Virus record (IMG/VR): IMGVR_UViG_3300037311_000303
Coordinates: 1 to 39,500 of that record
Strand: one strand, 5' to 3'
Length of the DNA stretch: 39,500 nt
From: a virus
Taxonomy: Duplodnaviria > Caudoviricetes
Part shown: piece by piece, positions 14,301 through 36,495 of the stretch
Layout of the letters: each line of letters begins with the position of its first letter
Position numbering within the stretch: position 1 is the first letter of the stretch
Position numbers and translations under genes: made by a program
The notes under the pieces: model-generated
Told to the model about the DNA's origin: nothing
Database searches by the model: none
Seen by the model: the letters and a program-made list of their open reading frames with translations, nothing else

Positions 14301-17300
14301 ACTCGAAGGTCATCGGCCCTTGCTGCCAGACGAACGAGGTGGGTGCTTTACACAACCACTGGCTGCCGTCGTGCGCGCAGTCGCTGACCAACTGCAGAAG
14401 ACTACGGCCCGTGGTGGTGCTTACGGCGCTGCCGTAGTTCAACACCCAACTGCGCACGGCTTCGCTGCCGACGAACGTGACCACCGAGGCCAGGCGCTGT
14501 GTTTGACGGGTCAGACCGCCGGCCAGATACGACGACGCACGATCGTTCGCGTTGCCGCCGCTGGGACGCGCTTCGTAGTTGAATGCGACCCGGCGATTGC
14601 CGACGATCGCGCCGAAGCCGGTGTAGTAAATCGACGACACCAGCGTCTCGCCGTTGCCGTAGCTGCTGTAGACGTAATCGATACTGTTGCCGATACGGTC
14701 TTCGTTGCGGACCTGCATCCAGGTCAACGGCACGGTGACGCCACCGGGAACGACGCGCGCGGCCGAGGCCGCCGTGCTCGTGTTGCCGTACCACGCGATG
14801 TCGCCGGACTTGCGCTCAACCTTGAAATAGCTGTTGGTCGCGGTGAGGTTGCCGCCCAACTGCGTCACCCGCACGAACGACTCCAGTTCGGTGCCGTAGG
14901 TGGCGTTGACCGCGCCGTAGGTGCCCCCGGTGAGGACGAGTCGCTGCCCGTCCAGGCACAGGCGGTCGCTCGCGTCGAGTTTGACCGCGCGGATCTGTCC
15001 GTCCTGCTCCAACGTCTGCGGACAGCGGTGGATCGACGACAGACCCGACAGCGACCAGCCCATGCCGGCGATACCGTTGCCGGCGCGGCTGCTGTAGTCG
15101 AGCGAGAGACTCGGCTGCATCCCGCGCCGGCCCGGTGGCACCAGGATGGGAATGGTATAGGTGGCACCGCCGCCGGAGACGCCGCCTTGGCCAGAGACCT
15201 TGCCGACGCCCGGATCATGGACCGGCAACGCACCCAGCAGACTCATGGGCGATTGGTCGCCCAGCAACTCGAATGCGCTGGCGCGCACGCGCACCACGGC
15301 AACCGTCGACGTGCCGACGGTGCCGGTATTGTCGGTTGCGCGCGCAGTCAGGCTGTAGTCGCCTGCCGCGCTCGGCGTCCAGTTCAGCGTGTACGGCGCG
15401 GCGGTATCGATGCCAAGTGAGGTGCTGCCGGCGAAGAACTCGACCTGGGCGATCGTGCCGTCGGTATCGCTCGCATTCGCCGAGAGCGCGACCGCATTGG
15501 GCAGCACCGCACCGGACTGATCGCTCGGCGAGGTGAGTTGCACCAGCGGGCCGCTGTTGACGATCAGTGTGGACACGGTGGAGATCGTGACGCCGCCACG
15601 GCTGTCGAAGGCTTTCGCGGTCAGCGCGTAGCTGCCCGAGGTGACGCCGCTGAGCGCATGCGCGAACGGCGCCGTGGTGTCGATCGCGAGCAGGGTGCCG
15701 TCGCGATAGAACTCGACCTTCGCGACGCTGTCGTCCGCATCGCTGGCGCTGGCTTCGATCGTCACGTCGGCGGGCGCCTGCTTGAGCGCATTGTTCGCGG
15801 GCGTGGTGATCGCGACGGCCGGCGGCGCATTGACGGTCGCGACGCTCGCCGCCGTCGTGGCGGTGCCACCACGATTATCGGTGGCGACCGCAGTAATCGT
15901 GTACACGCCGGCCGGCGCGTTCGTCCAGACCTGCGTATACGGTGCGGCGCTATCGGTGGCGACCAGGGTGCTTCCTGCGTAGAACTCGACCTTCACGATG
16001 CTGCCGTCCGCGTCGCTCGCGTTCGCCGACAGCGTGAGCACACCCGGTGCCTGCACGAGAGTGCCGGTCGTCGGCGCGGTCAGGCTCGCGCTCGGTAGCG
16101 CGTTGACGATCAGCGTATTCGCTGCCGAGACCGTGACCCCACCGCGGGTATCGAAGGCTTTGGCGGTGAGGCTGTAGGTGCCGGCCGCGAGATTGCTCGC
16201 TTGCCAGGCGTAGGGCGCGGTCGTGTCGGTCGCCTGCAGCACGCCATCACGATAGAACTCGACCTTGGACAGGCCATCGTCGGGATCGCTGGCGGTGGCC
16301 TGCACCAGCGGACTCGCAGGTGCGGCCAGAATCGCGCCCGAGATGGGCGAGGACACCGCCACGCTCGGCGGGTAGTTCACCGTGATCGCGACGGCGGATG
16401 AGGTCACGCTCACGCCATCGTCGTCGGTGGCGCGTGCCGTGAAGCTGTAGTTGCCGGACGGAATGTTCGTCCAGGTGTAGGCGTAAGGGGCCGTGGTGTC
16501 GGTCGCGAGCAAGGTCGTTCCGCTGTAGAACTCGACCTGCGTGATCGCGCTGTTGTCGCTGGCGGTGGCTTGAAGGCCGAGGTTCAACGGTCCCTGATAG
16601 GTCGAGCCGTCGACCGGCGTACCGAGCCCCACCGTCGGCGGCGTGTTGACCTTGAGTGTATGCGTCGCTTCGCTCGCCGCGCCTGCGTTGTCGTAGGCGC
16701 GCGCCTTGATCAGGAACGTGCCCGTGCCGGTGGGTGTCCAGGTCGTCGCGTAGGGAGCCGTCGTGTCGGTTGCGATCAGGAGGTCGGAAACGAAGAACTC
16801 GACACGCGCGATGCTGCCATCCGCGTCGATCGCATTCGCCGCGATCGACACGCCCGGACCGAACAGCACGACCTGTCCATTGGCGGGCGATGTGAGCGCC
16901 ACGCTCGGCACCTGATTCGTGGGCGCGGTCACCGTGGCGTTCACGGTATTCGACTGCAAACTGCTTCCGAGATTGCTGAACACCACGGCGTGAATCGCGT
17001 ACGCACCGGCCGGCACACCGGTCCAGGCGAAGCTGTAGGGGAATGCGGTGTCGGTGCCGATCAAGCCGCCGTTGGCGTAGAACTCGACCTTGGTGATGCG
17101 CTCGCCGTCATCGCCGATGTCGGCAGCGACCTCCATCGCAATCGTCGCGGGTGGGGTGTAGCTGGTGCCGTTCGGCAGCGACAGATCAGCCTGGATCACC
17201 GACATCGGGGCGATGACGGCCTCCTCCGGAGGAGGCGGTGCTGCAATGGTCTGCGCCAGCACGTACGACCCGGCGAGCACCAACGCCCAAGCGACCAGGA

Positions 17301-17352
17301 TCGGCCCGCGTTTGGCCAGCCACTTGCGCACGACACCTTGCCCACGTCCCAT
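8329..17352 (-). CDS. Giant Rhs/YD-repeat polymorphic toxin: signal peptide, 7 Ig-like repeats, SpvB/TcB-like domain, FG-GAP repeats, RHS core and C-terminal toxin domain
   Basis: 3007 aa. Hydrophobic N-terminus ending VLA-Q; seven VEF(Y/F)...TD..AP(Y/F) repeats; GGATYTIPILVPPGRRGMQPSLSLDYSS..GNGIAGMGWSL (SpvB-like); DxDGDG repeats; YD repeats; GFTQHEHL...MNGRVFDYNLGRFTGVDP...NPYSYIANNPLSGTDPTG core end at about 9244-9270. Confidence 0.95.
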   Translation of the reverse strand: MGRGQGVVRKWLAKRGPILVAWALVLAGSYVLAQTIAAPPPPEEAVIAPMSVIQADLSLPNGTSYTPPATIAMEVAADIGDDGERITKVEFYANGGLIGTDTAFPYSFAWTGVPAGAYAIHAVVFSNLGSSLQSNTVNATVTAPTNQVPSVALTSPANGQVVLFGPGVSIAANAIDADGSIARVEFFVSDLLIATDTTAPYATTWTPTGTGTFLIKARAYDNAGAASEATHTLKVNTPPTVGLGTPVDGSTYQGPLNLGLQATASDNSAITQVEFYSGTTLLATDTTAPYAYTWTNIPSGNYSFTARATDDDGVSVTSSAVAITVNYPPSVAVSSPISGAILAAPASPLVQATASDPDDGLSKVEFYRDGVLQATDTTAPYAWQASNLAAGTYSLTAKAFDTRGGVTVSAANTLIVNALPSASLTAPTTGTLVQAPGVLTLSANASDADGSIVKVEFYAGSTLVATDSAAPYTQVWTNAPAGVYTITAVATDNRGGTATTAASVATVNAPPAVAITTPANNALKQAPADVTIEASASDADDSVAKVEFYRDGTLLAIDTTAPFAHALSGVTSGSYALTAKAFDSRGGVTISTVSTLIVNSGPLVQLTSPSDQSGAVLPNAVALSANASDTDGTIAQVEFFAGSTSLGIDTAAPYTLNWTPSAAGDYSLTARATDNTGTVGTSTVAVVRVRASAFELLGDQSPMSLLGALPVHDPGVGKVSGQGGVSGGGATYTIPILVPPGRRGMQPSLSLDYSSRAGNGIAGMGWSLSGLSSIHRCPQTLEQDGQIRAVKLDASDRLCLDGQRLVLTGGTYGAVNATYGTELESFVRVTQLGGNLTATNSYFKVERKSGDIAWYGNTSTAASAARVVPGGVTVPLTWMQVRNEDRIGNSIDYVYSSYGNGETLVSSIYYTGFGAIVGNRRVAFNYEARPSGGNANDRASSYLAGGLTRQTQRLASVVTFVGSEAVRSWVLNYGSAVSTTTGRSLLQLVSDCAHDGSQWLCKAPTSFVWQQGPMTFELKAPNLIPESIGAKNGNIRPLGDMDGDGATEVLVDYSTIVSLTPDRTVRWSMTVPGTYAIHHFGQSADFNQDGRVDFVGRETATGRIVVRTWSGSPTDTNFTTAFGNLIDTGITVPGTTSAVDGLMHVGDMDGDGRADLVLVRSESSNAGSCANKLYVYRNTPNATNPATGAPTFPQAASHCLSVPHVGDAMYEGEEVQGVKDFDGDGLPDILIESALEAWTPYVPQGRKLDRILFGTRTAAGYSLTSTPFASVFPAAQPRDAHENKSGLFALWMDVNGDGLDDWLYVGYDKTWKLRYNRGGVFSTIYNLGVNAGLAGCGSSDSTSQSLCAHVWTPWQAQHLRPSDIDGDGRSELLFPTGFAANMCVLKPENMETCTQMGMGQLCTAGSERWVCPEDPVTGAAPPVVTRVASDLNDDGHPEVNVWHGAVTVGSHESGWPDYSTYKMSALRITEAADGTPVVTTVTTPLLSGAANLPGDDLYGDGHGDHLMLTSPEFGLRDVFGIPVEKGDGTPISETQSPRTLPGGLPILTGRVLVSEATGPGAAKNLDGLTPQTQDVLGMVTDGLGHQTVWSYAPLAGKAGRSAGQTPLYSVPMVASQRYIDERHIYFTSSMSVVAQMSQSDGIGGFRTWRYGYGEAIYNTQGRGFQGFRTVIEEDETAGLRTTTTFHQKFPLTSQPERIVVNPISRAGEDGAISRETYAWRCNLANRADTAACTPTYGTPKKIFPFLDTKEAWTYDATTAATGGTPAILGYTQEVAAADTTCVGTFATASGYDAYGNLRARTTHRRDLGAGSASGTANRLDRQCVSEANTYTTTTADWWLDKLTRTVVKTKVVWDTAQHPLPAGTSTPFITVTTDYGWNTNRTPSTETVQPGIANQQRVTAYTYPASNNYGLPSGVGVSAAGDPNGTRSVGTTFSADGYFPETVANALGHGASNVVRARDGQPSLTIDANGLRTLIDYDAFGFAIKKRLRGATDSVMVTPDQHLAVSACLPSTCAPGEVYRLTTVQDGAPVNEVRFDALGRLRTKAQTQMDGQWTRTLTEYTARGQVWRQSEPRRSEPDWTWTTFEHNDVLGRMTKKTVPKQGIDGRGDMVTTYGYAGRTTTIQVCGSNDGGAGNCLNLSRTTDSAGRYVETRDALNGRTRFWYEARGNVVAIEDAKAVVTQAVYNAIGQRTSIVDPNQGTWSFAYNALGELLSQTDARGIVTSMSYDKLGRTLTRSATADATGDGVTKPVVDTWTYDPTNAKGAPASEQRTINGVVERSKATVYDSLARPIQTDITQALTTGSQSYRFKTRYDSYYGRPVGQEYPNGETLQLVYSAYGNAVAEKDPVLGTEYRRLGSVNARGQTLQETFGNGVVLNPQYQTQTGQLTELRYSRNGSDLRKLGYGYDVFGNLTRQTLNAGQSQEDYSYDQLHRIVSAIRSGAASGTVNYGFDAVGNFTKKTDFSSNAANAYVYTGGSCGGGANAVKSVTLANSTTRTYCYDANGNLTSDNAGLSIKYDHMNLPTVAQRGANRDDFRYGADGQRTRSWGSDGSRVYLPGYEHRIDTNEIKIYVGDYAVITSGGGNSRKVEYLLKDRLGSVDAVASSAGTITETRGYDAFGKPRSGTWSDLTPPKLGSTNVTPKGFTQHEHLNQLELIHMNGRVFDYNLGRFTGVDPLIQNPLNSQSLNPYSYIANNPLSGTDPTGYAASCGDVSAKEKGSGSCTFTTSDGKEHNVDYKVGKDGKLSVKASGATFSAIAADNKSRGENGGAVPTGVTGVGRKEQAAALNDKGVASNSSDRVGRGSGGGPNDAGDNWTENGGMLSGDDNGAGEVEAAATPENRVDLVKRDKKGRPVFAGEKNTTELRASGKLSESARMRRGQLVMVDGSRLTAYKNETGKLEWDFDCFSVAIGNVEYWIEETDFNPWFAEFTKKNPDILQRVQSPMVGDMVIYRVNGYIKHAATLTAPGVVTMASGTVLYDTPDGGVSKTTQKRVENGWDGADAEYWRQTR
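15290..17190 (-). repeat. Seven ~90-aa bacterial Ig-like (Big) repeats inside the Rhs gene
   Basis: Repeated units NxxPxV..P..G.....A.A.D.DG....VEFY....L.ATDT.APY...W....G.Y..TA.A.D; coordinates approximate. Confidence 0.85.
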
Positions 17353-17942: not shown

Positions 17943-20900
17943 TCAACCACCGCCACCGCCACCGCCGCCATCTCCACCCCCACCGCCATCGCCGTTCGGC
18001 CCCGAAGCGGGCGCCATCGTGCGCGCACCAATACGCATCACTGGGCCGGTGGAGGTGACGACATCGACATCCATCGTTTCGGCCTGAGCTTGCGCCTGTG
18101 CCTGTTGCTGCTGCAGAGACTGCATCGCCACGCGCGATACGTCCGAGGATTGTTCGATCGATGCGACGGACAGGGACTGTTGGATGTCGACCGGGGCGAG
18201 CCGATTGGCGGGGCTGTCGAGCGGGCCGTGGACGGCGATGAGTTTCGTGCCGTCGTTGTTCATCACCACCGCGTCGACCTGCGGTGTCGGAAATCGATCC
18301 GATTGCGACAGCGCCTGCGCCACCAGTCCGGCGGCGAGCGTTTCTTCCTGGTGCTGCGTGAACGTTCCGGCGGGGATGTTGAGTGAGGTGCGCAACGCGT
18401 TCAATGCTTGCGCGTACATGGCGTGCGCGGGGTGCGCCGACTGCGTCACCAGCGGCGCGGACGGCGCCAGGGCGGGATCGGCAGCGCCTGCCTGCGCCGG
18501 GACATGACCGGGTTGGCGCTCATCGTCGCGGTCGCCCCGCGAGACCGCGCGATGCGTGAGGGCGGGGTCGGCGACGGACGGCGTCGCAGGCGGCGCGTCG
18601 GCGCGCGCGACGGGCGTGCGTTCGGGCTCGGATGAGGTGTCGGCGTCGCGTCCGGTGGACGACGACAAGCGGACAACGGGCGTTTCGTTCGCAGGCTCAT
18701 GCGCCTCGCGGGCCGACGTTGCTTCTGACGATGGCGAGCGGTCCGGGCTGCCCGGTTCGCTGCGTTCCCGTTCGCGCTGCGCCGCCAGGGCGTGATCCAC
18801 CGCCTGGCGCGTGTCCTGGTCCGCGATGCCGGTCGCGGGCAGGCCATGCAGGGTCTGGAATTGGCGGACGGCGTGTTCGGTTTCGGGGCCGTACTGACCG
18901 GTTTGCGGGATCTGCTCGCCGTCCGGCCCGCGGTAGCCCTGCCGGTCCAACCGGGACTGCAGCAGTTCGACCTGGTCGTTGCGATCACCGGGCCGCAGGG
19001 CATCGGCAACGTCCACTGCCGGTGCGCCGGTGGCCGGGGGCATGGTCTGTGGTGCTTCGCGATCGACAGGGGCCGTTGGAGCGATCTCGCTGGCGCGGTT
19101 CGGCAACGGATCGGCCTGTGCGACCTGAGGCGCGGGTTCCGGTGTCGGTTCCAGGTGCCCGGCGGCGGGCGCCGACTCGGTTTCCGGCGAAGTCTGCGCC
19201 CGCTCGGCGGTGTTTGTCGAAGGTGCGTGATCGGCCTGCGCGCGTTCGCGTGCCTGCTGCGCGGCCTCGTCGTCGCGTGCGACCTGCGCCAGGCTCGCCA
19301 CCGCGGCGGCCTACGCGTGGTTCTGCGCCGCAGGGGTGTCCTGCGCGCGCTCCCGTGGCGTCTGCGGCGCGTCGGTCGCCTCAGTGGCGGCCTCGCGCGG
19401 CGTCGCCGGCCCCAGCGAAATCACGCGCACCGTGGCGTCGAGGGTTGCCGCATAGGCGACCTGCTGTGTTTCGTCGCGGGACAGGCCCTCGCGGTTCGCC
19501 TCGCGCGTAGCCTGCTCACGGGCGTCCCGCGCCTCCGGCGACAGTGGGCCGATGCTCCGCTCAGGCGCCGCCTGCATCGGTGTGTCCACGTCGCCCGAAC
19601 CGGATGTCCGAACGTTGGCGGCGAGCGCGATGTCACCCGGCCGCGTCGTGGCGACGACCTGCACCACGCCATTCGCGTCGAGTTTCGTGTGCTGAATCGG
19701 GCTATCGAAGCTGTAGCTACCGTTGACGTCGCGATCCAAGGCGAACGCCGTGGTCCCCAGGGCGATTCCGTGCTCGGCGCGCGTGCGCTGCACGGCCGCG
19801 TAAGTCGCCTCGAACTGCTCCGGTTTGATATCGGGGTTCCAGCGGTTGTCGAGGTACACGTCGCGCAGCAGTGCGCGGTCGGATTCCTCTGGCGTCGGCG
19901 GCTGCCACGAGGGCATGCTCGCCAAGGTCTGCTGGTGGAGGTCGAGCGCCGGCACTAGGCGCTCGCGGGTCAGCTCCAGTTCCAAGGCGCGATTGGCGGA
20001 CGCCACCTCACCCTCGTGCATCCACACGCCCTGCAGATCGCGCTGGTAGTGCTTCCCATCGGAGGCTTGCAGCAGATCCGGGGACAATGCAGCGGCGACG
20101 GCGTCCGGCACTTGGCCGGGATAACCATAGGCCCTGTGTCCGACCTCATATCGCGCGGCGATCGCCGCAGGGCCGGCCTTGAGGTTGTCGTCGATAACCG
20201 CCATCGCCTGCGCACTGAGCTGCGCGGCACGCTCCGGACTCGCGTACTCAGGCTCGGACTCCCAATCGGTCATGTCGCGTCGATCGACACCATTGGCGAC
20301 TTGCCTCGACCAACGGCCGCTCTCCGCGCTGTACGTCCAATCCGTCACTTCAAGATGCGCCGGATCGCTGCCGTTCTTCGGTTGCACGAACGGACTGCGT
20401 GGCTCCGGCGCCTTGCCGAGCGCCTGCTCCGCCGCTTCCACGCTGGCCAGATGGCTCAGCTCGCGCGCCTTGTCAGGCTGCGCCGAAAACGATTGTCGGT
20501 GCGCGACCGACTGGCCATCGTCCACCAAATCGGCGCGCAGATCGTCGCGAATCCACTTGCGACCGTTGAATTCCCACTCGACGCCGGCTGTGTCGGTCTG
20601 GGTGTAGATCTTGTCGTTCTGCCACATCATCACCGCACGCTCGGCCGCCTTGCCGAACACATAGCCTTCGGCGGCGACCAGCACGAGCGTGCCGCCGGAG
20701 CCTGTGCCCAGCGCGGTCGCGGTGGCGGCGCCCGCAACCGTCCCGGCCATTGCGCCGGTCGTCTGCGCCGCTTGGCGCGCATAGGCATCGTCTGCGGCAG
20801 TCTCATTGCCGAGCGTATGCTTGAACACCTGCGCGCGCTGGTGGGTGTCGCTCCACTCGATTCCGGTCAGGGCGGCGCTGACCGCGAAACCGCCGATCGC

Positions 20901-22199
20901 GGCCTTCGTGCCCGCAGACAGTGATCTCGGTGGTGAATAGGGCTCCAGCTCCACATTGGGATTGCGCGCCAGCCTTGCCATCAGGCCATCTGCACCGGCC
21001 TGCTCAGGCGGCGCTACCTGCAGCGTGCGTTCCACCGGGCGCGCTTGCACGTGGAAACGCCGCGCCATGTCGTTCGCAGGTTCCGGCGCCTGCTCGAACA
21101 CATGCACCACCTGCCCCGGCCGCGTCGCATGCGTCATGTCCGGCGTCAGGCGCGTGATCTCGCCCTCGGGATTGGCGCGATCCACCATGCCTGTATATCT
21201 GAACTTCCAGTTGGTGTGCGATTGGTGGACGACGTTCATTCGCGGATCGTCCGTCTCATGCAACCGCTGAAACAGCGGCTGGCTCGACAGCGCGTTGTGG
21301 TAGTCGGTCATCAAATTCATGCTGCGGTCGGCCAGACCGCTGCGCAGATACCAACCCCCGACATCCGCATGCACGCCGGATACGGTCACGCTCAGGAACC
21401 GCCCGTCCGCCGACAATCCCTGCGGAATGATGCGGTCCACCGGAAATGGCTTGCGAAGTTCGTCTGCGGAGTTGATCTGGAAGCCCGACACCACGGACGG
21501 CGGCAGACGCCGGTCGATCAGCTCTTGAACCCCCGTCGGCACCGGGTCGTAGAGCCCGACGGACATGGGCGTGCGACCTGCCGGCTGGTGAAGCCGGCTA
21601 AATGATCGCGTGACATGGCCGCCATCGTCGATCTGCTGGACTTCGGTTTTCAGATCAGGAATGCCACGCTCGTCAATCAGTCGCGCGACCATCGGCACGG
21701 TGCTGGCACCGCGGCTGAAGCCTTCAAGGTGAATGCTGATTTTCGCGTCGGGGTCTTTTTCGTAGATTGTTTGCGCCTGACGCACCAGCTTCCAGTACAT
21801 CTCCTCTGCGCGGTCTAGAGCGGTAGCGCCAGTTCCGCCATCCAGCGAATTGGTGACGAAGTTGGTCTGGGTGCCGGGGCCGGGGACGTATTCGTAACCG
21901 ACATTCCTGACGCCCGCTTCGTTGAGACTTTCGATCTGACGCTTGAGTCTCGCGACGTTGGTCGGATGAAGCGGGTCTTGCGTGACATCGTTGCCCGTCC
22001 CGTCCAGAAGCGCGAAAATCATGTAGGAATGGCGATCCCTCGGATCCCATAGCGCGGGTGCCTTGAACTGGCGCATCTGCTCTGCGGCGCGCTCGAAACT
22101 GCGGAGTTGCTCTTCCGACGCCCCCACATGCGGCACATCGTCATAGGGCAGACCATCTTCGACCAATCGGAAGGTCGTCTTGCGATCGTTGTTTCCCAT
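17943..22199 (-). pseudogene. X-T4SS effector (DUF2235/Tle1-type phospholipase, PG-binding domain, XVIPCD) interrupted by one in-frame TAG at 19311-19313
   Basis: ORFs 19311-22199 and 17943-19301 share a frame (…AQNHA*AAAVASLAQ…). N-part: LLDGTGND, EGFSRGA, GLYDPV, GVHADVGG. C-part: LRPGDRNDQVELLQSRL...YGPETEHAVRQFQ (PG-binding) and HPAHAMYAQ...VVMNNDGTKLIAVHGPLDSPANRLAPVD...EQSS plus a Q-rich tail (XVIPCD). Confidence 0.85.
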
Positions 22200-22212: not shown

Positions 22213-22749
22213 TCAGTAGGTCTTCGTCCATGCCAACATCAAATCGCGCAGGCTGTCGCTGTTGCGAACAGCAGGATCGCGCGGCTGCTTTAACAGCACC
22301 CATGCGCGCATATACACGTTGATCTTTCGATCACTGATTTCCAGCAGAATCTGAACATCGCGCGCATGATCTCGAGTGCCCCAGTCCTCAACGACTTCAG
22401 CTTCAATGGCCTTATGCAAAATTAAACGTTGAGGGAAAATGGCTTCCAAGTCGATTTCGGCTGAATGATCGACGCCATCAAGCGATGTCCAGCGAACCAA
22501 AACTGGCGGAGGAAAAACTCTGTCGGATGAGACCGAATGTCCAGCCCTCCAGTCATCTTTCCAATCTGAAGCGTAAGGCTCGCCAGTAGGCGAAAGCTCT
22601 GCGTTTTCCGATAGTTGGTTCGTGTTATCGAAAATGACGACGGCGCGCAGCGTGTTATAGGCCCTCGCCCCAAAGCTGAACGAATCGAAGCGCAGCGGCC
22701 ACAATTCGCTGGATGCGTCGTCCCCGTCTTTTCTTCCGAATATGGACAT
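22213..22749 (-). CDS. Putative cognate immunity protein (X-Tfi) of the DUF2235 effector
   Basis: Directly upstream of the effector (13-bp gap), the usual X-Tfi position; WPLRFDSFSFGARAYNT...FPPPVLVRWTSLDG...EIDLEAIF...INVYMRA; lower GC. Confidence 0.7.
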   Translation of the reverse strand: MSIFGRKDGDDASSELWPLRFDSFSFGARAYNTLRAVVIFDNTNQLSENAELSPTGEPYASDWKDDWRAGHSVSSDRVFPPPVLVRWTSLDGVDHSAEIDLEAIFPQRLILHKAIEAEVVEDWGTRDHARDVQILLEISDRKINVYMRAWVLLKQPRDPAVRNSDSLRDLMLAWTKTY

Positions 22750-23077: not shown

Positions 23078-23423
23078 CCATCATTTCATGTCAGCGCGTT
23101 ACATTTCCGTCAACCAGTGCAATTGCACTTTTCCGACGTCTCCAGCCGTTTTTAGCGTTCAAATTCAGCAGAATCCAGCAGACGAAATCCTGCCATGATA
23201 GTACTTGATGCTTTCGCAAAATTCCGACAGAGAGAGGCCTTCGTTGAAGCTATCCCATCGTCAAGAGCAATCACCATCAATGCTTCCTTCATGTCGCGCG
23301 CCGCCCTTCCGAGCCGCCCATTGATTGGAACCGCGTCTTGCAGTCTCACATGAAGAAATACAGCACGATCCCGAACGCGACGCGCGCCCAGAGCAGCACG
23401 ACATCGGCGACGATCTCGACTCT

Positions 23424-23450
23424 CGTCCTGTCGTCCTGGAAACGTCCTTG
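23424..23450 (-). promoter_or_regulatory. Three tandem CsrB-type GGA motifs just after the third CsrA-like gene
   Basis: Minus strand CAAGGACG-TTTC-CAGGACG-A-CAGGACG; the CsrB repeat consensus is CAGGA(U/C/A)G. Confidence 0.5.
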
Positions 23451-23465
23451 CCGGCGAGTGCGCAA

Positions 23466-23867
23466 TCAATGTCGCTCCATTCGCGGGTCGGGTTCCCCGC
23501 GTTGTATCCGCTGATAGATCTCTTCCCGGTGTACGGGCACCTCACGTGGAGCGTCGATGCCGACCCGAACCTGTCGGCCGCGTGCGAGGTCGAACCAGCC
23601 GCCGAAGGAGCCGCTTCCAAACGACACGACGACCTCCTCGCCGATCCGAAGGGAATCGCCCACCATCACGGCGATGAGATATCGTTTGCCGCGACGGTGC
23701 CGCCGACGCGCGGGACTGACCGGCATGTCGCAGTCATCAGTGATTGCGATGTTCGACGGCACAGCCAGCGCGACCGTAAGGTGCGCACGCAGTTTCGAGA
23801 GGATCGTCAGGCGCATGTTGTCGCCGATGCGAATGCTTTCGCCGACACGGCGGTTCAATATCAACAT
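23466..23867 (-). CDS. csrA: CsrA/RsmA-family protein with an internally duplicated domain (paralogue 3, best conserved)
   Basis: N-terminus [23 protein letters not shown]; second repeat [15 protein letters not shown]...[24 protein letters not shown]; 133 aa, about twice CsrA. Confidence 0.9.
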
Positions 23868-23873
23868 GGGCTG

Positions 23874-24251
23874 TCAACCTGCGCGACGGCGAGCGCGTTG
23901 TCGAGGGCGATATGGCGCCTGCCGCACGACCGTCAACGGTGACGGCGAGTCAATTTGCAGGCGCACTTCGCGCAGTGCGCGCGCGTTCTCCATGCGCAAT
24001 TGCACTGCCTCCACGGTGATGCCAACAGGGCCGATGGAGAAAGTTTCGCCATCGCGTAGCGCCAGGATGTGCGCACGCCGCCGGATACCGGACGGGGCGC
24101 TGGCGTGGAACCCGCCGACGCCGCCCAGCTCGTGTCGTGACGCGGCGTCGATGAAGACGTAGAGCGTTTCGCAATCTCGCCCGGTAAAGTTGAGACGAAT
24201 GTCGGCGCCGAACTGCAGAGATTCGCCCACGGTGCAATCGAAGACAGGCAT
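23874..24251 (-). CDS. Divergent tandem CsrA-like protein (paralogue 2)
   Basis: MPVFDCTVGESLQFGADIRL...; second repeat LALRDGETFSIGPVGITV...EVRLQIDSPSPLTVVR; its ATG abuts the upstream TGA. Confidence 0.7.
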   Translation of the reverse strand: MPVFDCTVGESLQFGADIRLNFTGRDCETLYVFIDAASRHELGGVGGFHASAPSGIRRRAHILALRDGETFSIGPVGITVEAVQLRMENARALREVRLQIDSPSPLTVVRQAPYRPRQRARRRAG

Positions 24252-24680
24252 TCAGGTGGCCCCGAAAAGAAGCCGGCCCCCGTCGTCCTCAACCTGCAAC
24301 AGGGGGACTGCAGGGGTGACGGGGGCCGACCGGGGGCCAAGTTGCGCGTCGCGACCACATCGCGCGCAGGCGGGCGTGACGCCGATATGCAGCCACTCTT
24401 CGCAGTCGGCTGCATGGGGGACCAATTCACCGGGGAGCCAGATGCTCACCTCGAAAGGGCCAATGCGGAAGCGTCGCAGGGCTTGCAGCGAAAAGAAGTA
24501 GGTCCAGACCCCGATCGTGCTCGAAGTCGGGCGGACGGACGCGCCGCCCAGGATCAGGTCCGTGCCTGCCGGCACGGTCACATCCACGCAGACCCGCTCC
24601 CCCTCTCGGCGGCGGATCACGATCCGTGTGTTGTCGCCGAGGCGCAGTTCGCGCCCGATTTGGCATGTCTCGACCAGCAT
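24252..24680 (-). CDS. Divergent tandem CsrA-like protein (paralogue 1)
   Basis: Likely start ATG 24680, MLVETCQIGRELRLGDNTRIVIRRREGERVCVDVTVP; second repeat RRFRIGPFEVSIW...WLHIGVTP. Confidence 0.65.
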   Translation of the reverse strand: MLVETCQIGRELRLGDNTRIVIRRREGERVCVDVTVPAGTDLILGGASVRPTSSTIGVWTYFFSLQALRRFRIGPFEVSIWLPGELVPHAADCEEWLHIGVTPACARCGRDAQLGPRSAPVTPAVPLLQVEDDGGRLLFGAT

Positions 24681-24684
24681 CCTG
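24678..24684 (-). promoter_or_regulatory. CsrA consensus site CAGGATG overlapping the start codon of the first CsrA-like gene
   Basis: Minus strand GGTTGCAGGATGCTG; GCA-GGA-TGC can form the typical short hairpin with GGA in the loop. Confidence 0.45.
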
Positions 24685-24779: not shown

Positions 24780-25469
24780 TCAAGCGTCGCGTGGCTCATC
24801 ATCCAGCTCGTGCAGCAGTCCATTGCTATAGATGTAAGGCAGCAAGTCAGAGCCGTCGCGCAGGCCAAGCTTATTCAATCCGTTGTACTTGTGTGTCGTA
24901 ACGGTGCTATAGCTGCGTCCTGTGGAGTCCACAATTTCGTTGGCCTTCGCGCCGCGGCAGAAAGCAACGAGCACGGCCCGTTCGCTGTCAGTAAGTGAAG
25001 TCCAAGCATGCTTGCTCAAGCCGTCAAGGTTGATGTGGCTATCAATGTAGGCTTGGTCATTCGCAACCGCAGCGAAGGCTTTGACTAACTCGGATGTGGG
25101 ACTGATTTTTGCGACATAGCCCAGTGCGCCAGCATCCATGACGGCGCGGGCTAGGAAGGCGCTTTCGTCGGCGGTATAGACGAGCAAGCGCAGATTCGGA
25201 TCGGTTGCCAACAAGGCGCGCACCAACGCGACACGTTTGAGGCGACCGGGCATCACAAGGTCGAGTATGACAATTCGCGGCGAGTTGGACGGCTGGGCAC
25301 ATACGTCAAGCAATGAGGCACTGGTATGAGCTGTCAAAAATCGTGAAGCCACAACGCCGAGTAGATCGGCAAGCATCTGGCCGACGGCAAGAGTTACAGA
25401 CGGGTGGTCGTCAGCGATGATGTACGTGAATTCAGCAAAAAGACGTTCGGGAGAAGTGTTTTGATTCAT
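24780..25469 (-). CDS. NarL/LuxR (RcsB-like) response regulator
   Basis: REC domain: IIADDHP, VILDLVMPG, VYTA, GYVAK. HTH: LTDSERAVL...GRSYSTVTTHKYNGLNKLGL. Confidence 0.92.
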   Translation of the reverse strand: MNQNTSPERLFAEFTYIIADDHPSVTLAVGQMLADLLGVVASRFLTAHTSASLLDVCAQPSNSPRIVILDLVMPGRLKRVALVRALLATDPNLRLLVYTADESAFLARAVMDAGALGYVAKISPTSELVKAFAAVANDQAYIDSHINLDGLSKHAWTSLTDSERAVLVAFCRGAKANEIVDSTGRSYSTVTTHKYNGLNKLGLRDGSDLLPYIYSNGLLHELDDEPRDA

Positions 25470-25705: not shown

Positions 25706-27838
25706 ATGTCGAATCGCATAGAAAACGCACCTTTGTCGCTCGTGCAGATCGCCTCTTCGCTACGCGACAACGTTCTTGAGGCAGCACTCTCCGGATATCG
25801 AGAACCAGAGATTGCGCGGTTGCGCGTCTATGGTCTTCTGTTCGCGGCAGCATGGGCACTGCTGTGGTACTTCTTAGGGCCAACAAACATTCCGCGCACG
25901 CCTCAGTGGTGGAATTACCCCCAGGCGGTTGCCATATTGCCCCATGTGCTGGTGATGTTGGCACTCGCCCTCTCATGGTGGTTCGCCATTCAGCGTAGGT
26001 GGATTCGATCATCGCATTGGATTGACGCGCTAGGTGCGATCGCAAACATAGTAGGGGTTGCGATCCTGCTGAACCGCGCGTTCGATCTGATGATCGCGTT
26101 CATCTGCTACTTGCCGATCATCTCAATCACCGTGGGCGCCCGGTTCAATAGACCGCTACTTTATGGAACGATTTTAATTTCTGTCGTCGTTGTCTTGACC
26201 GCGCCTTCTGATCCGAACTATTTTGCGATTAGGCCACACTTTGCTCTTTTTGCGGCGACATTGTTGGTGATGATGCCGTTGTCCGTCGTTCGGCTTTTGA
26301 ATATCGTCCGTGCTGTTTCGGAAGTAGCCGTAAGGTCGCGCGATGCACAGTCACAGTTCATTGCGACGATGAGCCATGAACTACGAACGCCACTGAATAG
26401 CGTCATCAATAGCGCCGTCCTGATTGATGTTGAAAAAATGCCCGAAAGCCAGCGGCAGATTGTTGATGCGCTACTCAGCTCTGCAAATGCGCTTCGTCAT
26501 CGCGTCAATGAAGTGCTTGACGTGCGCATGATCGAAGCGGGCTCGTTGTCAATTCTCTCCGAGCCATTTCGGATATCATCGCTTCTCAAAACTATTCGAG
26601 ACATGGCCGAACCGCTGGCACTGGCTAAGAACATCGAGCTTCACGTTGCCTCAGATGAAGTGGCCGACCTGGTTTTGCAGTCCGATGCGACACGACTTGA
26701 ACAGGTGATTACAAACCTCGTCACAAACGCGGTCAAGTTCACGCCGGAAGGTGGGAAAGTAGAGCTTCGAGCAGAACGGGACGGCTTGGGGACTAATGAG
26801 CGCATCCCTGTCCGGTTTTCCATCGCCGACACAGGACCTGGTATTCCTGAAGAGGACCTTGAGAAGATATGGCTACCATTCCATCAGCTTAGCTCCGGTA
26901 GTGCGCGCCGACACGGAGGCGTAGGGCTCGGTCTGTTCCTTGTGAAGTCCATTCTTTCGTATATCAACGGCTCGGTCGAATACGCGCCACGCGCTGGAGG
27001 CGGCAGCCTCTTCATAGTTCGACTGACGTTCAGCCGCGCCGCTCCAGGAGCGCTAGCAACTCCAAACCTTACTTTTCAGGAAGCGGTCGAAGAACATCGC
27101 AAGCACACACCACCAATGCGATGCCTAGTAATTGACGATGCGACCAGCAACCTTGAAACAATTGATCGGCTGCTATCCATCGCTGGACATACGATATCCA
27201 GGGCGCTTAGTGGGAAAGAGGGGCTCGTGATGGCCCGCGAGGGAAGATTTGACCTTATTCTCCTGGATCTGCATATGCCCGACCTTACAGGTAACGATGT
27301 ACTCGGCATGCTGCGGGCAGAAGGCATCATGTCTACGACACCCGTCTACATGCTTTCCGCAGATGCATCGCCTGAAGCAATCAGAGATGCGGAGGCGCTT
27401 GGCGCTCTCGGCTATCTCACCAAGCCAATCAACTACATGAAATTGTTGGCGTTGCTGGAAACCGTTGCAGTCATTGCTAAGCGAGCGATATCAATGGACT
27501 TCGCCGATGATCGGTTGACCGGAATCGCGCTTATTCAGGAGTCTGCGGGCACAGAGTCGGCTAGGCAGTTCGCAGACAAGCTATTCATGGAGATAGACAA
27601 CGAATGCAGATTGCTTCTTGAAGCTTTTGCATCAGAGGACATTCATGGTGCAGCCGATCGAACGCATCGTATAAAAAACTTGTTGCTCAATGCTGGGGAC
27701 ATCAAGGGTGCGGACCTCTGCGAGGGCTTGCGGAACCATCTCAAGCTCGGTGATCTGAGTATGGCAGCAAGCATGATGGAGCGGCTTGTATCGCTCGTCG
27801 ACTCGACGCGCGCGCGCGCGTTAAGCGCGTTGAACTGA
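25706..27838 (+). CDS. RpfC-like hybrid sensor histidine kinase (multi-TM sensor, HisKA, HATPase, REC, HPt)
   Basis: About 5 TM segments; MSHELRTPLN, NLVTNAVKFT, DTGPGI, PFHQ, GGVGLGL; REC VIDD..LLDLHMP..LSAD..LTKP; C-terminal THRIKN (HPt). Same domain order and similar length to Xanthomonas RpfC. Confidence 0.9.
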   Translation: MSNRIENAPLSLVQIASSLRDNVLEAALSGYREPEIARLRVYGLLFAAAWALLWYFLGPTNIPRTPQWWNYPQAVAILPHVLVMLALALSWWFAIQRRWIRSSHWIDALGAIANIVGVAILLNRAFDLMIAFICYLPIISITVGARFNRPLLYGTILISVVVVLTAPSDPNYFAIRPHFALFAATLLVMMPLSVVRLLNIVRAVSEVAVRSRDAQSQFIATMSHELRTPLNSVINSAVLIDVEKMPESQRQIVDALLSSANALRHRVNEVLDVRMIEAGSLSILSEPFRISSLLKTIRDMAEPLALAKNIELHVASDEVADLVLQSDATRLEQVITNLVTNAVKFTPEGGKVELRAERDGLGTNERIPVRFSIADTGPGIPEEDLEKIWLPFHQLSSGSARRHGGVGLGLFLVKSILSYINGSVEYAPRAGGGSLFIVRLTFSRAAPGALATPNLTFQEAVEEHRKHTPPMRCLVIDDATSNLETIDRLLSIAGHTISRALSGKEGLVMAREGRFDLILLDLHMPDLTGNDVLGMLRAEGIMSTTPVYMLSADASPEAIRDAEALGALGYLTKPINYMKLLALLETVAVIAKRAISMDFADDRLTGIALIQESAGTESARQFADKLFMEIDNECRLLLEAFASEDIHGAADRTHRIKNLLLNAGDIKGADLCEGLRNHLKLGDLSMAASMMERLVSLVDSTRARALSALN

Positions 27839-27842
27839 GGCC

Positions 27843-32325: not shown

Positions 32326-34812
32326 TTACGCCAATCGGCGCAGACTCACGCGCTCGACGCGTCCCGCGAACGCAGCGTCGGCGGCGATTCGCAGCGCGGT
32401 GTGCGCATTCGCGGTGAGCGTGTCGATGAAGGTGCCGCTCGCGGCGCGCGCCTCGCCGTCGACGGGGACGTGTCCGACCAATCCGACGCGCACCGTGCCG
32501 GCCGTGACCTGGGACAACACCAGCTCGATGCGATACACGCCACCGTCAACGAAGGCAAACGGTTGTTCGAGGGAGGAGGCGACGCCTGCGGCCTTGACCG
32601 CGGCGCTACCGGCGATCGACCAGCCCGCGCCGAGTGTCCACGCGGCTTGCGTATCTAAGTCGGCATTGGTTAGCTTTTCCCCGCACTCGCATTGCAGCGT
32701 GCGGATGTGCTTTTGTCGACTGACCAGCGTGCCCCGCTGGCTATCGATCTCGATGCGCAGCATCGCGTCGTTGGCGAGCAGCACCTCGACGCTGTGCTGC
32801 GTGCCGGCGATGCCGGTGGTTTCATGCAGCACGGCGCCACTGAGCGCGTGGACGATGCGCACGCGCGTCGTCGTGCCGGGTTCGGGGCCGATGCTCCCGG
32901 CCTCGTGCTCGATCAGGCGGTCGCCCTGCAGCACGCGATCACGATGTGCCCACGCGAACGACAGGCGCGCGAAGCTCGCGGCGGGCCAGGCGTTGCCGTT
33001 TATCCGCAATCGGCCGGGGGGATAGGGCCGCGCATGGCGCGCGGCGAGCACGGTTTGCACGACCGGCGCGAGCGACGGGTCCAGCACCCCCAGCGGCGCG
33101 CGGGTCAGCAGCTTCGCCTCGACGGTTTCGCCGGCCAGGTATTCGGTCGGGTCGGCGCCGACGTAGGTGTCGGACCACCAGACCCGTGCGCCCACGACGT
33201 GCGGTACGGGCACGGTGTCCACGCAGCCGCGCGCGAGCGTGAGCGTGCCGGCGACCACATCGATCGCATCGATCCGCACCAGTTCGTCGTCGATCAACGC
33301 TTCGGTGCCGACGACGACCAGATCAAGATCGCGCATGTCCGCCAGCAGGGCCTGCGTATCGGTCGGCCCGAGCGCGCCCGCGAGCGTGGCGGTGGCCGAG
33401 AAGTCGCCACTGGCGACCTCCTCGAAGGTGCCGCCCGCCGTGCGTGTGGTGAGCACGTAGCCGTAGGCGGGGCCGTTCGGGCGCGCGCCGAGCGCGACCA
33501 CGAAGCCGGCATCGTCTTCGACCACGGCCAGATCCGCAGGCCGCAGGCGACCGGCGAGATCGCGATACGTGGCTTCGATCAGCCGCTGCGCCGGCAGTGG
33601 TTGCGGCCGGGGATCGGGCGGCGTCCACGGCCCGATCACCGGACGCAGGTAGGTCGTCGCCGCCATGCCGTCGATGTCCTGCAACAGCACCAGTGCCAGC
33701 GCGCCATCGGTGCGGGTGCCCTCGTCGACCTCCAGCACCCGCACGGGCATGCGCTGCACGCCCTTGCGTCGCCAGGACAGCGCGAGCACGTCGCCGCGCT
33801 TGATGCCCCACCAGCGACGATCGACGGTGAGTTTGATCCGCTGCAGCAGGCTGCTCGCGGCCTGGGTTTCGCGCGCGGCCACGCGCTCGCACAGGGTGCG
33901 ATGCCACAGTCCCGGCAGCGCACGACGATCGGCGATGACGCGGCCCTGCGCCTGGACGTTCGCCATGTTCTGGAACGTGGCCGCGATCTCAAGATTGGTC
34001 ACGCAATCGCGACCGAGCACCGTGACCTCGTTGACGCTGCCATCGAGCAGCGGCGTCTGCCAGCTCTCCACGGCCAGCACGCTGGTCTCATCGAGCAACG
34101 GCAGGGTCGCGACGTCGTAGTCCGGGCGGAACAGCCGGTAGACGAACTGGCCGAGCATCGGATCGAACGCCCACAATCCGCCGACGTGGTTGTTCACCGT
34201 CTGCAGGAAATTCCCCACCGAGTCCCCGCGCCGCCACCCCAGGCACAGCCCGAACGCCTCGTCGTGCAACTGCTCGGCCGCGCGCAGAAAGCTCTCCGCA
34301 TGCAGCAGCGCCGGATCGAGCCCCACGCCCCACACCGTGTCGGTGAGGCACTGGTAGTGAATGTGCGCTGCGTTCATGCCGCGGCCGATGCGCGCGAGCG
34401 ACGGTTCCCACACGGGTGTGGACCAGCCCTGCACGAAGCGCCCCCAACGCTTGGCCCACAGCTTCAGGTAGGGGTTCATCGCCCCGACCATTCCGCGATA
34501 GAGCGTGGTGCAGAGCCCGCGTCCCGCCGGCCACGGTCCCGGCACTTGCTGCTGCAGATACGGATCGGGCATCTGCGTCGCTTCGCCCATCCGAATCTGT
34601 AGCGTGCCGACGAGGCCGCCTTCCTTTTTGTCGCCTCCGAAGAGCATTGGCCGATCGATCGCCAGCGTGCGACTGCCCGTCAGTTCGCCCTCGAACACAG
34701 GCTGGCCGCCTACTTTCACGCCCGCGAGATAGTCGTTCGGACCGATCGACTCACCCATGTACAGGTACATGAAATGGCGATAGCCGATCGTTGGCTTGCT
34801 CGACTTACCCAT
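32326..34812 (-). CDS. Phage tail-tip/central tail protein
   Basis: 828 aa; MGKSSKPTIGYRHFM...LFGGDKKEGG...MNPYLKLW...MNAAHIHYQCLTD...LARGCVDTVP...RPYPPGRLRING, as in D3112-like/GTA-like siphovirus tail proteins. Confidence 0.85.
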   Translation of the reverse strand: MGKSSKPTIGYRHFMYLYMGESIGPNDYLAGVKVGGQPVFEGELTGSRTLAIDRPMLFGGDKKEGGLVGTLQIRMGEATQMPDPYLQQQVPGPWPAGRGLCTTLYRGMVGAMNPYLKLWAKRWGRFVQGWSTPVWEPSLARIGRGMNAAHIHYQCLTDTVWGVGLDPALLHAESFLRAAEQLHDEAFGLCLGWRRGDSVGNFLQTVNNHVGGLWAFDPMLGQFVYRLFRPDYDVATLPLLDETSVLAVESWQTPLLDGSVNEVTVLGRDCVTNLEIAATFQNMANVQAQGRVIADRRALPGLWHRTLCERVAARETQAASSLLQRIKLTVDRRWWGIKRGDVLALSWRRKGVQRMPVRVLEVDEGTRTDGALALVLLQDIDGMAATTYLRPVIGPWTPPDPRPQPLPAQRLIEATYRDLAGRLRPADLAVVEDDAGFVVALGARPNGPAYGYVLTTRTAGGTFEEVASGDFSATATLAGALGPTDTQALLADMRDLDLVVVGTEALIDDELVRIDAIDVVAGTLTLARGCVDTVPVPHVVGARVWWSDTYVGADPTEYLAGETVEAKLLTRAPLGVLDPSLAPVVQTVLAARHARPYPPGRLRINGNAWPAASFARLSFAWAHRDRVLQGDRLIEHEAGSIGPEPGTTTRVRIVHALSGAVLHETTGIAGTQHSVEVLLANDAMLRIEIDSQRGTLVSRQKHIRTLQCECGEKLTNADLDTQAAWTLGAGWSIAGSAAVKAAGVASSLEQPFAFVDGGVYRIELVLSQVTAGTVRVGLVGHVPVDGEARAASGTFIDTLTANAHTALRIAADAAFAGRVERVSLRRLA

Positions 34813-35101
34813 GTTTCACCGCATCACGACGCGAACGCCACGCGCGCAGGCGCTGCATGAGGTTTCGATGCGGCGGCGAAACGATGATCGGACGCAGTTG
34901 CATGATCACGATCGGGCGTCGGCGCACACGGCCGCGCACGAGTGCCGGCACGTCGACGCCCCACAGCGCGTGGACGACGCCCGCAGCGATGCCGAACGCA
35001 CCGAACGGACGTTCGCCCGAGGCCCACAGCCATGCGCCAGAGAGCATCGAGCCCACGCAGGCGAGCGCGATCCAGCCGCGATAGACCTGCTCACGGCGCA
35101 T
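34805..35101 (-). CDS. Small membrane protein within the tail operon
   Basis: Likely start ATG 35101 (MRREQVYRGWIALACVGSMLSGAWLWA...); two hydrophobic segments; overlaps both neighbours. Confidence 0.5.
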   Translation of the reverse strand: MRREQVYRGWIALACVGSMLSGAWLWASGERPFGAFGIAAGVVHALWGVDVPALVRGRVRRRPIVIMQLRPIIVSPPHRNLMQRLRAWRSRRDAVKHG

Positions 35102-35402
35102 CGGAGTGTTCCTGCGTGTCCGTAGCCGCACCCTGCGTCGCTTCGGCGCACGCCGCTTCACGTTCGGCGATCGCCATCGCGCGGGCGACGAAGGGATCGT
35201 CGTGCAACTGTGGGTGCGCGGCGATCTCGATGCCCTCCTCGCACAACGCACGCAGATTGATCGCGTGCTGGCGACACCAGGCGCGAATGCTGGGCGTACA
35301 CAGTGGTCCGGCGGCCGGATCGACCGCGCGCACATGGCGCAGATGGATACGCAGGCCGTCGACAGCGTTTCGCTGCATGCTCATTTGCAGCGGCGTGTTC
35401 AT
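35091..35402 (-). CDS. Phage tail assembly protein
   Basis: IHLRHVRA...LCTPSIRAWCRQHAINLRALCEEGI; ATG overlaps the upstream stop. Confidence 0.7.
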   Translation of the reverse strand: MNTPLQMSMQRNAVDGLRIHLRHVRAVDPAAGPLCTPSIRAWCRQHAINLRALCEEGIEIAAHPQLHDDPFVARAMAIAEREAACAEATQGAATDTQEHSDAP

Positions 35403-35626
35403 TTACCGCTTTTGGCCTTGATCGGCGTGGTGCGCAGATCGCCGTAGGCCAGGACGTTGGGATCGTCGACCCACACTTCGCCGAAGATCACCAGCACCTC
35501 GCGCCCTTCTTCGGCGGTCGGCACCGAAAAATCGGCCAGGGCCGGCGGCTTCTGCGATTGCGGTTTGGGACGCATCGCGACGCTGATCGCGAGGGCGAGA
35601 ATGAGGACGACGACGTAAATCCACAT
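35399..35626 (-). CDS. Phage tail assembly protein
   Basis: MWIYVVVLILALAISVAMRPKP...DFSVPTAEEGREVLVIFGEVWVDDPNVLAYGDL. Confidence 0.8.
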   Translation of the reverse strand: MWIYVVVLILALAISVAMRPKPQSQKPPALADFSVPTAEEGREVLVIFGEVWVDDPNVLAYGDLRTTPIKAKSGK

Positions 35627-35687
35627 GGCGAGGGCGTGAGGACGCCGGCACGCGAAGCGCGCCGGACGTAATGGGAGCGGAGGCGTG

Positions 35688-36485
35688 TCAGAAGACGGGT
35701 TCATTGCCGAAGGGATTGCGCATGCCCTTCAAGGTCGGTTGGCCGCCGTAGTTCAATTCGTTGCGGAATTTCGGGCAGCCGTTCGGCCCCATCGTGCGAT
35801 CGCAGCCGGGCAGCGCGACGACGCGCGCATCCGGCGCTAGCGCGGCCGGGGTGAGCAGGCGCAAGGTGGTGCCTGCGTGCGTGACGATGAAGCGACGTTC
35901 GATGCCGAGCGTCGATGTCCACTGCAGCACGCCGCCATCGAAGTGGCCGTCGTCGAAGGCATCGAATGCCGCGGACATGACCGTGTAGCCGGTGGCATCG
36001 CTGAGCACGGCCGGGACGGCGTGCGCGTCCGGATCGGCATTGCACAGCCCCAGCCCCTGGCTGTAAAGCACCAGCGGACAGTTCGATTGCCAGTTTCGGC
36101 GCAACCCGAGGGTCTCGACTGCCGCGGCGAGCGACTGGCAACGCAACTTCGCCACGCGGTGCGTTTCGTCGAGATCCGCGACGTGCCCGGTCCAGCCCAA
36201 ACGCACCTGACCGTCCCGCACGCGCACGCGCTTGAGGTCCAATCGCAGCCGCAGGCCCGGCGGCACGGGGCGGAACAGGTTCAACAGCGGCAGCTCGAGT
36301 GGCGCGGTGATCTCCAGCGTGTTCCGTGCCTCTTCCGCCGACTGCGCGATCCGCCCACGTGTGAGCGCGACCGGCACATAGCGCTGGCCTTCGACGATCG
36401 CGACACGGCCGGCATCGGTGTAGCGCCAGTGGTGCAGTCCGATGGAGAAGTCGTACAGCTCGATCTCGCGCGAGAGCAGGGCCAT
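35688..36485 (-). CDS. DUF2163/BR0599-family phage tail protein
   Basis: ELYDF...WRYTD...QSNCPLVLY...C...PGCDRTMGPNGCPKFRNELNYGGQP (conserved Cys cluster). Confidence 0.85.
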   Translation of the reverse strand: MALLSREIELYDFSIGLHHWRYTDAGRVAIVEGQRYVPVALTRGRIAQSAEEARNTLEITAPLELPLLNLFRPVPPGLRLRLDLKRVRVRDGQVRLGWTGHVADLDETHRVAKLRCQSLAAAVETLGLRRNWQSNCPLVLYSQGLGLCNADPDAHAVPAVLSDATGYTVMSAAFDAFDDGHFDGGVLQWTSTLGIERRFIVTHAGTTLRLLTPAALAPDARVVALPGCDRTMGPNGCPKFRNELNYGGQPTLKGMRNPFGNEPVF

Positions 36486-36495
36486 GCGTGCGGAC

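Follow-up and report, generated by a model that had tools for sequence, protein, structure and literature searches.

In the textbook view, CsrA is an obligate symmetric homodimer. Each of its RNA-binding faces combines strand β1 of one subunit with β5 of the other, L4 and R44 being critical residues, and dimers left with a single face are reported, in the accessible text of PMC7652899, to be incapable of bridging two sites and to repress glgC more weakly. In the artificial single-chain protein Re-CsrA (Ye et al. 2018; PDB 5Z38), which has been crystallised, residues 1–44 of CsrA without the helix are joined through a linker to a full CsrA; the available portion of the report (PMC5864733) describes one intact site (β1′, β4, β5, α1) that binds RNA, and states that the RNA face of CsrA also binds a protein, CesT.

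Proteins of this type are also carried by mobile elements. RsmQ and RsmM (bioRxiv 10.1101/2022.06.27.497698, PMC7366521) are mobile-element-borne Csr proteins like those described below, but they are single-repeat proteins, and RsmQ, according to the accessible text of the preprint, forms homodimers and also heterodimers with Rsm proteins of the host, behaviour not expected of a closed single chain. The words tandem and fusion are absent from the accessible text of a survey of plasmid and phage CsrA proteins (PMC7366521). In Legionella, lvrRABC, with a repressor and a CsrA paralogue, regulates island excision; like the cassettes analysed here, it combines an SOS-type repressor with a short operon containing a CsrA paralogue, near type IV secretion genes and on mobile islands, whereas its cargo is conjugation machinery, not toxins, and in the accessible text of PMC3864950 LvrC has a CsrA domain, a tandem form is unreported and MASE1 is not mentioned. 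Our search of openly accessible articles found no publication on tandem, duplicated or single-chain CsrA or on such a cassette, and the diversified operon and its cassette appear undescribed.

We analysed a 39,500-nucleotide stretch of DNA from a virus record (the window, here always the whole stretch) that contains three adjacent genes for tandem CsrA-like proteins, G1, G2 and G3, followed by a small fourth gene, G4. The reading that we favour, with a probability of roughly 45%, is that this operon provides the output of a mobile sensor–repressor cassette, in which G3 likely sets the translation of the cassette and of its toxin cargo locally, while G1, G2 and G4 likely modulate.

Architecture of the operon and its proteins

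The three minus-strand open reading frames lie exactly where the earlier, sequence-only reading had placed them (Table 1); the stop codon of G1 adjoins the start of G2, and a gap of 6 nt separates G2 from G3. Judged by its gene content, the region holding the cassette is prophage cargo, with tail genes on the right and a serine recombinase on the left.

Table 1. Features of the window discussed in the text.
Feature	Position	Strand	Remarks
DUF2924 and large serine recombinase module	5189..7448	-	likely prophage end
Rhs/YD-repeat protein, 3007 aa, Ig domains	8329..17352	-	polymorphic-toxin type cargo
Xanthomonadales T4SS antibacterial effector: Tle1-like lipase, PG-binding, XVIPCD	17943..22199	-	two ORFs, split by in-frame stop
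Cargo gene before effector	22213..22749	-	conserved in 11/20 loci; no Pfam match
G4, unannotated 39-aa ORF	23346..23465	-	TTG start directly after G3 stop
G3	23466..23867	-	133 aa; CsrA pseudo-dimer in a single chain, predicted to have one full GGA-binding face
G2	23874..24251	-	125 aa; tandem CsrA-fold protein
G1	24252..24680	-	142 aa from ATG; putative tandem CsrA-fold protein
CAGGAUG, CsrB-type motif	24678..24684	-	overlaps G1 start codon; candidate autoregulation site
LuxR-family response regulator	24780..25469	-	in place of S24 repressor; common to L001
Membrane hybrid histidine kinase, HisKA-HATPase-REC-Hpt	25706..27838	+	at MASE1 sensor position of relatives; low-GC block (52-54%)
Prophage right part: phage tail and structural genes	32326..39460	-	cassette is prophage cargo

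The earlier claim of two CsrA repeats in every gene, assessed with Pfam and by hhalign comparison of the separate halves, is firm for G3, good for G2 and indirect for G1. G3 matches Pfam CsrA (PF02599) over two stretches at 72.9 bits (cut-off 27) and NCBIfam PRK01712 at 73.6 (cut-off 73); its halves align with canonical CsrA at E-values of 2e-21 and 5e-31 and with each other at 9e-11, and its profile aligns with those of G2 (E = 1.9e-8) and G1 (E = 1.8e-8) across both repeats. On the strength of these profiles, G1, G2 and G3 are true paralogous tandem-CsrA proteins. AlphaFold2 folds the single G3 chain (pLDDT 85, pTM 0.80) with ten strands like those of CsrA, a short strand in the linker and, at the C-terminus, the only helix, repeat A being without one. 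Residues 1–48 of the model superpose on CsrA chain 5z38_H at 1.0 Å and residues 60–125 on 2bti_B at 1.9 Å, and the strands of the two halves probably interdigitate. Searched as a whole, the model has an FHA-type domain as its top VIA match (Z 7.0, 10% identity), the CsrA halves scoring Z 4.8–4.9; in PDB Foldseek nothing reached E ≤ 0.001, though CsrA chains were listed at probabilities of 0.97–1.00. The notion that G3 is a CsrA with a large insertion was ruled out, because either half can be superposed on CsrA and the two also match one another.

One face hardly varies among 122 G3-type sequences (L4 in 121, R6 in 118, Q99 in 117, R101 in 115, R114 in 121 and E116 in 118), and R114, the equivalent of CsrA R44, persists in 25/26 sequences after dereplication at 70%. 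On the other face, Arg or Lys occurs at positions 43–45 in 3/122 sequences and is absent from 119/122, and β1B has hydrophobic residues at the R6/R7 equivalents. The motif pattern first noted, with β1 kept in repeat A and β5 in repeat B, is as claimed, and the single-chain pseudo-dimer with one intact RNA face that had been proposed from it agrees with the residue tallies, the AlphaFold2 model, the superposition of the halves and, in the available portion of PMC5864733, the precedent of Re-CsrA. G3 is thus predicted to keep one RNA face, formed by β1 of repeat A and β5 of repeat B. Of the companion statement that the other face is freed, the loss of the RNA-binding Arg stands, but this face has conserved residues of its own that are not those of CsrA, namely H29 (114/122), T31 (107/122) and Y63 (121/122); D44 is present in 87/122 sequences, but in 14/26 after dereplication.

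By these features G3 is CsrA-like, yet both repeats occupy one open reading frame, in place of a homodimer of two 60-aa chains with two equivalent faces. Compared with CsrA/RsmA/RsmE (PF02599; PDB 1Y00, 2BTI, 2JPP), it has the same fold and the full β1/β4/β5/helix set of RNA contacts, and differs in its one chain and one face, in a 9-residue insert in the β3–β4 hairpin of repeat B, and in having paralogues with re-purposed faces. Re-CsrA resembles G3 in carrying two repeats and one intact site in one chain, but it is artificial and leaves β5 of the first repeat unchanged, whereas G3 is natural, its linker is structured and its second face has been remodelled. One-faced CsrA is an engineered form in the cited literature; here a natural family would be one in which fusion freed faces to diverge and which then came to occupy several cassettes per genome. 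Such a family offers a direct test of CsrA valency and of how an RNA-binding fold gains new ligands, and G3 could serve as a compact monomeric GGA-binding tool.

G2 scores 23.9 bits against Pfam CsrA, below the cut-off of 27, while its halves match CsrA in hhalign at E-values of 8e-7 and 3e-4 and its profile matches solved CsrA at 0.0025. Its homology to CsrA rests on profile comparison, by which G2 is CsrA-derived and not a member of the CsrA family. It had been described as a divergent paralogue, and β1 is indeed altered (D5-C6), with a basic tail in place of the helix motif; R110, the R44 equivalent, is nevertheless present in 49/49 sequences and R97, the R31 equivalent, in 46/49, so that G2 is not simply a binder that has lost its site.

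G1 has no match to Pfam CsrA. Its half A matches CsrA in hhalign at 7e-9 and half B alone does not (E = 0.28); a deeper G1 profile matches solved CsrA (PDB 1y00) at 5e-6, and the comparison with the G2 profile is weak (E = 0.0015). On this evidence G1, too, is CsrA-derived and not a CsrA family member. Consistent L4 or R44 equivalents are missing, and C6, C93 and H98 (in 73/77, 72/77 and 73/77) stand where CsrA has RNA-contacting residues; from CsrA geometry, they would cluster at the former RNA face. Other conserved non-CsrA residues are R25, R29, Y61, F63, R69 and W81. The AlphaFold2 model is confident to about residue 103 (core about 90 pLDDT), with a G3-like strand order up to β4B and no confident β5B or helix. 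It aligns with a 105-aa CsrA cluster at TM 0.70 and with a 114-aa phage carbon storage regulator (BFVD) at a probability of 0.99 but an E-value of 0.15; in PDB Foldseek nothing scored E ≤ 0.001, and CsrA chains were absent from the matches listed. At the G1 position of another locus there is a 59-aa open reading frame with a single degenerate CsrA-like repeat (L004:940-1119).

G4 has a ribosome-binding site, GGAG, within the 3′ end of G3, and its predicted product has a basic N-terminus and one hydrophobic helix. A frame of 37–40 codons, opening with TTG behind a GGAG and ending in a hydrophobic helix, is present at 16/17 readable loci, with 2 more at a contig end, and G4 accompanies 17/17 triads. 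Differences by codon position (298/226/389) fall mostly in the third, with 207 synonymous against 105 non-synonymous. Readthrough of the G3 stop into G4 was ruled out by a TAA stop in L083, by the ATG or GTG start of G4 in other cassettes and by the GGAG before the start. This fourth gene, the invariant Arg of G2, the Cys/Cys/His set of G1 and the repressor, sensor and toxin genes of the cassette all go beyond the sequence-only reading.

Sensor, repressor and toxin genes

It is at the level of the family that the layout is lvrRABC-like: a divergent S24/HTH repressor accompanies 47 of 52 G3 loci, and the window has a kinase and a LuxR regulator instead. Among the five loci without this repressor, the sequence is too short at two and one has no such gene; the window and L001 instead carry the LuxR regulator and hybrid kinase, in a low-GC block (24780-28406) that is 96–98% identical between them. 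The layout of the kinase is reminiscent of that of the DSF sensor RpfC, and only its receiver part matched 3m6m.

Behind the S24 repressor of the relatives follow a MASE1 membrane protein and a small protein with a signal-peptide-like start; MASE1 stands beside the repressor in 9/12 paralogue regions, and the other 3 stop at or near a contig end. An assignment of these upstream neighbours as a kinase and a response regulator was rejected, as they are MASE1 and S24 repressor genes. The C-terminus of the MASE1 protein looks like a kinase devoid of its motifs. In the repressor, Arg occupies the position of the catalytic Lys in 41/50 sequences, the other 9 being unmatched by the pattern, in which the Ser-Lys dyad is placed as in LexA. 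By this pattern the repressor appears to lack the catalytic dyad of self-cleaving LexA/CI repressors and, because of the Arg, is probably not RecA-cleaved. Genes for a small protein that looks secreted, a MASE1 pseudo-kinase and an S24 repressor with Arg for Lys form a conserved trio in L082:6281-9070, L252:6310-9170 and many other loci, and appear to make up a separate signalling module, as yet undescribed. At one locus a small lipoprotein gene without a Pfam match (L005:9003-9383, minus strand) lies between repressor and operon; its product resembles entry-exclusion lipoproteins.

The operon faces away from the CI/LexA-like repressor, as a Cro-like early operon would. G1 and G2 might then use a CsrA scaffold to bind proteins, as anti-repressors or as regulators of excision, along the lines suggested for lvrRABC, which governs island excision in Legionella according to the accessible text of PMC3864950, and the link to toxins would reflect shared insertion hot spots. 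We consider this quite improbable: the cassette is found in phages of more than one type and also in the chromosome, these sites share no integrase, and selection on the G3 RNA face is strong. No gene annotated as lvrA or lvrB was present in three Legionella plasmid regions.

The cargo of the window includes the 3007-aa protein, with seven Big_7 stretches, an FG-GAP and an SpvB-family domain and Rhs repeats, and the split effector, whose counterpart at L161 is a single 1442-aa open reading frame with 83% identity; from its position, the gene before the effector may confer immunity. A downstream XVIPCD or Rhs gene was found at 17/23 G4-positive loci against 1/7 G4-negative ones, in a tally confined to loci for which at least about 4 kb of sequence was available (shorter loci being omitted from both counts); these loci are related and not randomly drawn. 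The six G4-positive loci without such a gene are L001 (VirD4 only), L003, L085, L162, L165 and L330. XVIPCD matches number 19–36 per 3.8–4.7 Mb genome in G001, G002, G003, G005 and G437, a density that would put one downstream at roughly 5% of loci by chance, a figure computed without Rhs and for loci that are kin. These genomes are predicted to hold a large repertoire of T4SS effectors, and VirB4 is encoded in 4/5 host genomes. An extra gene for a VirD4-type coupling protein directly follows G4 in two loci (L001:3429-5117, L328:6842-8530).

Many of the G4-negative G1+G3 pairs occupy fixed chromosomal sites, where a trpG-like gene or tRNA-Leu follows and the adjacent downstream sequence encodes no toxin. 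L299 and L300 have tRNA-Leu(TAA) downstream of G3; at that place in L244, L301, L304 and L307 a 5′ half resembling tRNA-Leu gives way to other sequence, possibly an intron, for which ARAGORN gave no result and Rfam, in 4 sources, no match.

Candidate RNA targets and proposed mode of action

A(N)GGA occurs in 41/43 G1 leaders and in 42/93 control leaders, a comparison confounded with the Shine-Dalgarno sequence and with unreliable control starts; its excess over shuffled G1 leaders is confounded by Shine-Dalgarno content and kinship. GGA hairpins are not enriched in dereplicated G1 leaders (6/20 against 4.3 expected; 107/500 shuffles), the cargo leaders have no common CsrA motif, and a promoter and terminator scan gave results at chance level. 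The RNA targets are therefore candidates, given the null result for hairpin enrichment and the lack of a common motif in cargo leaders.

Regulation of Xanthomonadales T4SS toxins is described as little known, and in X. citri CsrA represses the X-T4SS (virB) operon, according to the accessible text of PMC7286519. G3 could accordingly act on the host Csr network in the manner of RsmQ, occupying GGA sites or antagonist RNAs and thereby changing the extent to which host CsrA represses the killing T4SS and its other global targets, with G1 and G2 as decoys for CsrA-binding proteins. Canonical csrA is kept in the hosts, face 1 of G3 closely resembles the surface of host CsrA, RsmQ has been found to bind sRNAs and targets of its host (bioRxiv 10.1101/2022.06.27.497698, accessible text), and CesT is a protein bound by the RNA face of CsrA (PMC5864733, available portion). 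We regard this as possible, if somewhat unlikely: a one-faced binder would be less avid than bivalent host CsrA; the presence of as many as five cassettes in a genome, each equipped with a separate repressor and sensor, is more in keeping with local control; and an Rfam scan of 8 sources gave no match to a Csr/Rsm antagonist sRNA.

In the locally acting cassette that we favour, a surface signal is proposed as the transcription switch because the S24 repressor is probably not RecA-cleaved. Perceived by the MASE1 protein or by the kinase of the window, the signal would turn transcription on, by lifting repression or, in the window, through LuxR activation. G3 would then fold alone into a mimic of the CsrA dimer and sit on single GGA motifs at ribosome-binding sites of the operon and cargo mRNAs. 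Since it is one chain, which should neither swap subunits with host CsrA nor bridge two sites, it would act locally and weakly, not as a global regulator. G2 may be a retargeted RNA binder and G1 a modulator that binds a ligand or metal; G4, a small membrane protein, likely modulates G3 as well. The cassette would thus be a candidate control layer over Xanthomonadales T4SS and Rhs toxins. A more far-reaching proposal, which we think rather doubtful, is that a T4SS-armed genus has made CsrA into a private modular signalling kit of single chains that exchange no subunits, with G3 as reader, G2 as retargeted reader and G1 as a Cys/His, metal- or ligand-gated part, in which a membrane sensor and a non-cleavable repressor license the translation of individual toxin cassettes, insulated from host CsrA and from each other.

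Gene sets, distribution and relatives

Searches found 77 full-length homologues of G3, 32 matches of G2 and 41 of G1; these numbers, and a gene order kept in 17 triad loci, show that the trio is not due to chance. The triad is not, however, the basic unit: the 52 G3 loci comprise 25 with G1+G3, 17 triads, 4 with G3 alone, 2 with G2+G3, 1 with a half-length G1 plus G2 and G3, and 3 that are unassignable, and L253 has G1 without G3. Such variable sets, with G3 alone at 4 loci and G1 without G3 at L253, argue against an obligate complex. They also weigh on the idea that G3 pairs with G1 and/or G2, perhaps tethered by G4, into a hetero-oligomer that rebuilds a bivalent RNA clamp with a new, signal-gated specificity. 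Translational coupling, with a start directly after a stop, would suit such an assembly, as would the R97 and R110 kept in G2 and the conserved non-CsrA residues of the second face (H29 and Y63 of G3, and those listed above for G1 from R25 to W81), but with G3 alone, G1 alone, pairs and triads all represented we find it distinctly unlikely.

The G3 profile matches 34/43 genomes of one GTDB genus of Lysobacteraceae at E ≤ 1e-14, and the G1 profile adds 5, which brings the tandem-CsrA family to 39/43; there are often several copies per genome, and two genomes have five cassettes each. In a sample of the family, all 15 matching genomes (of 400) belong to this same genus, and in a sample of the order (401 genomes) the only full-length match was in the seed genome; with 9–10 candidates scored per genome in both samples, these results mean not found, as distinct from absent. 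Among annotated plasmids 0/45 matching records cover 80%, and among phages 0/37; two Legionella-labelled genomes gave no tandem match. The G1 profile retrieved 120 proteins among 1.84 billion representatives.

In a midpoint-rooted tree of 50 rows, G1 (81/94) and G2 (96/94) form clades and G3 does not, and other tandem CsrAs stand apart (90/92), a topology consistent with the duplication of a G3-like ancestor into G1 and G2. The branches of G1 and G2 are long, and one copy of G3 is interrupted by a stop codon and a G1 match contains stops, as might be expected if G1 and G2 were decaying duplicates without function; this is disfavoured and hardly credible, because each forms its own clade and each has its own near-invariant residues across 18–26 dereplicated lineages.

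Fusion is not unique to the trio, since one-faced single-chain CsrAs occur in other lineages. About 18 proteins outside the G1/G2/G3 family have at least two CsrA repeats, several with intact β1A and β5B, and tandem CsrA clusters in the ESM Atlas, of 96–445 members, come from Planctomycetota, Peregrinibacteria and phages. Natural tandem CsrAs such as P0250, P0259, P0288, P0294, P0296 and P0299 often resemble G3 in an intact β1A and β5B, and are those separated from the G1/G2/G3 family in the tree with the support given above. Fusion of CsrA with loss of one face is thus recurrent; the new features of the present family are its cassette and its split into divergent paralogues. A further protein, P0283, has four CsrA repeats in 303 aa. 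A plasmid of Legionella geestiana has a pair of neighbouring single csrA genes ahead of traT (L241:3744-4171), possibly an unfused counterpart of the tandem genes.
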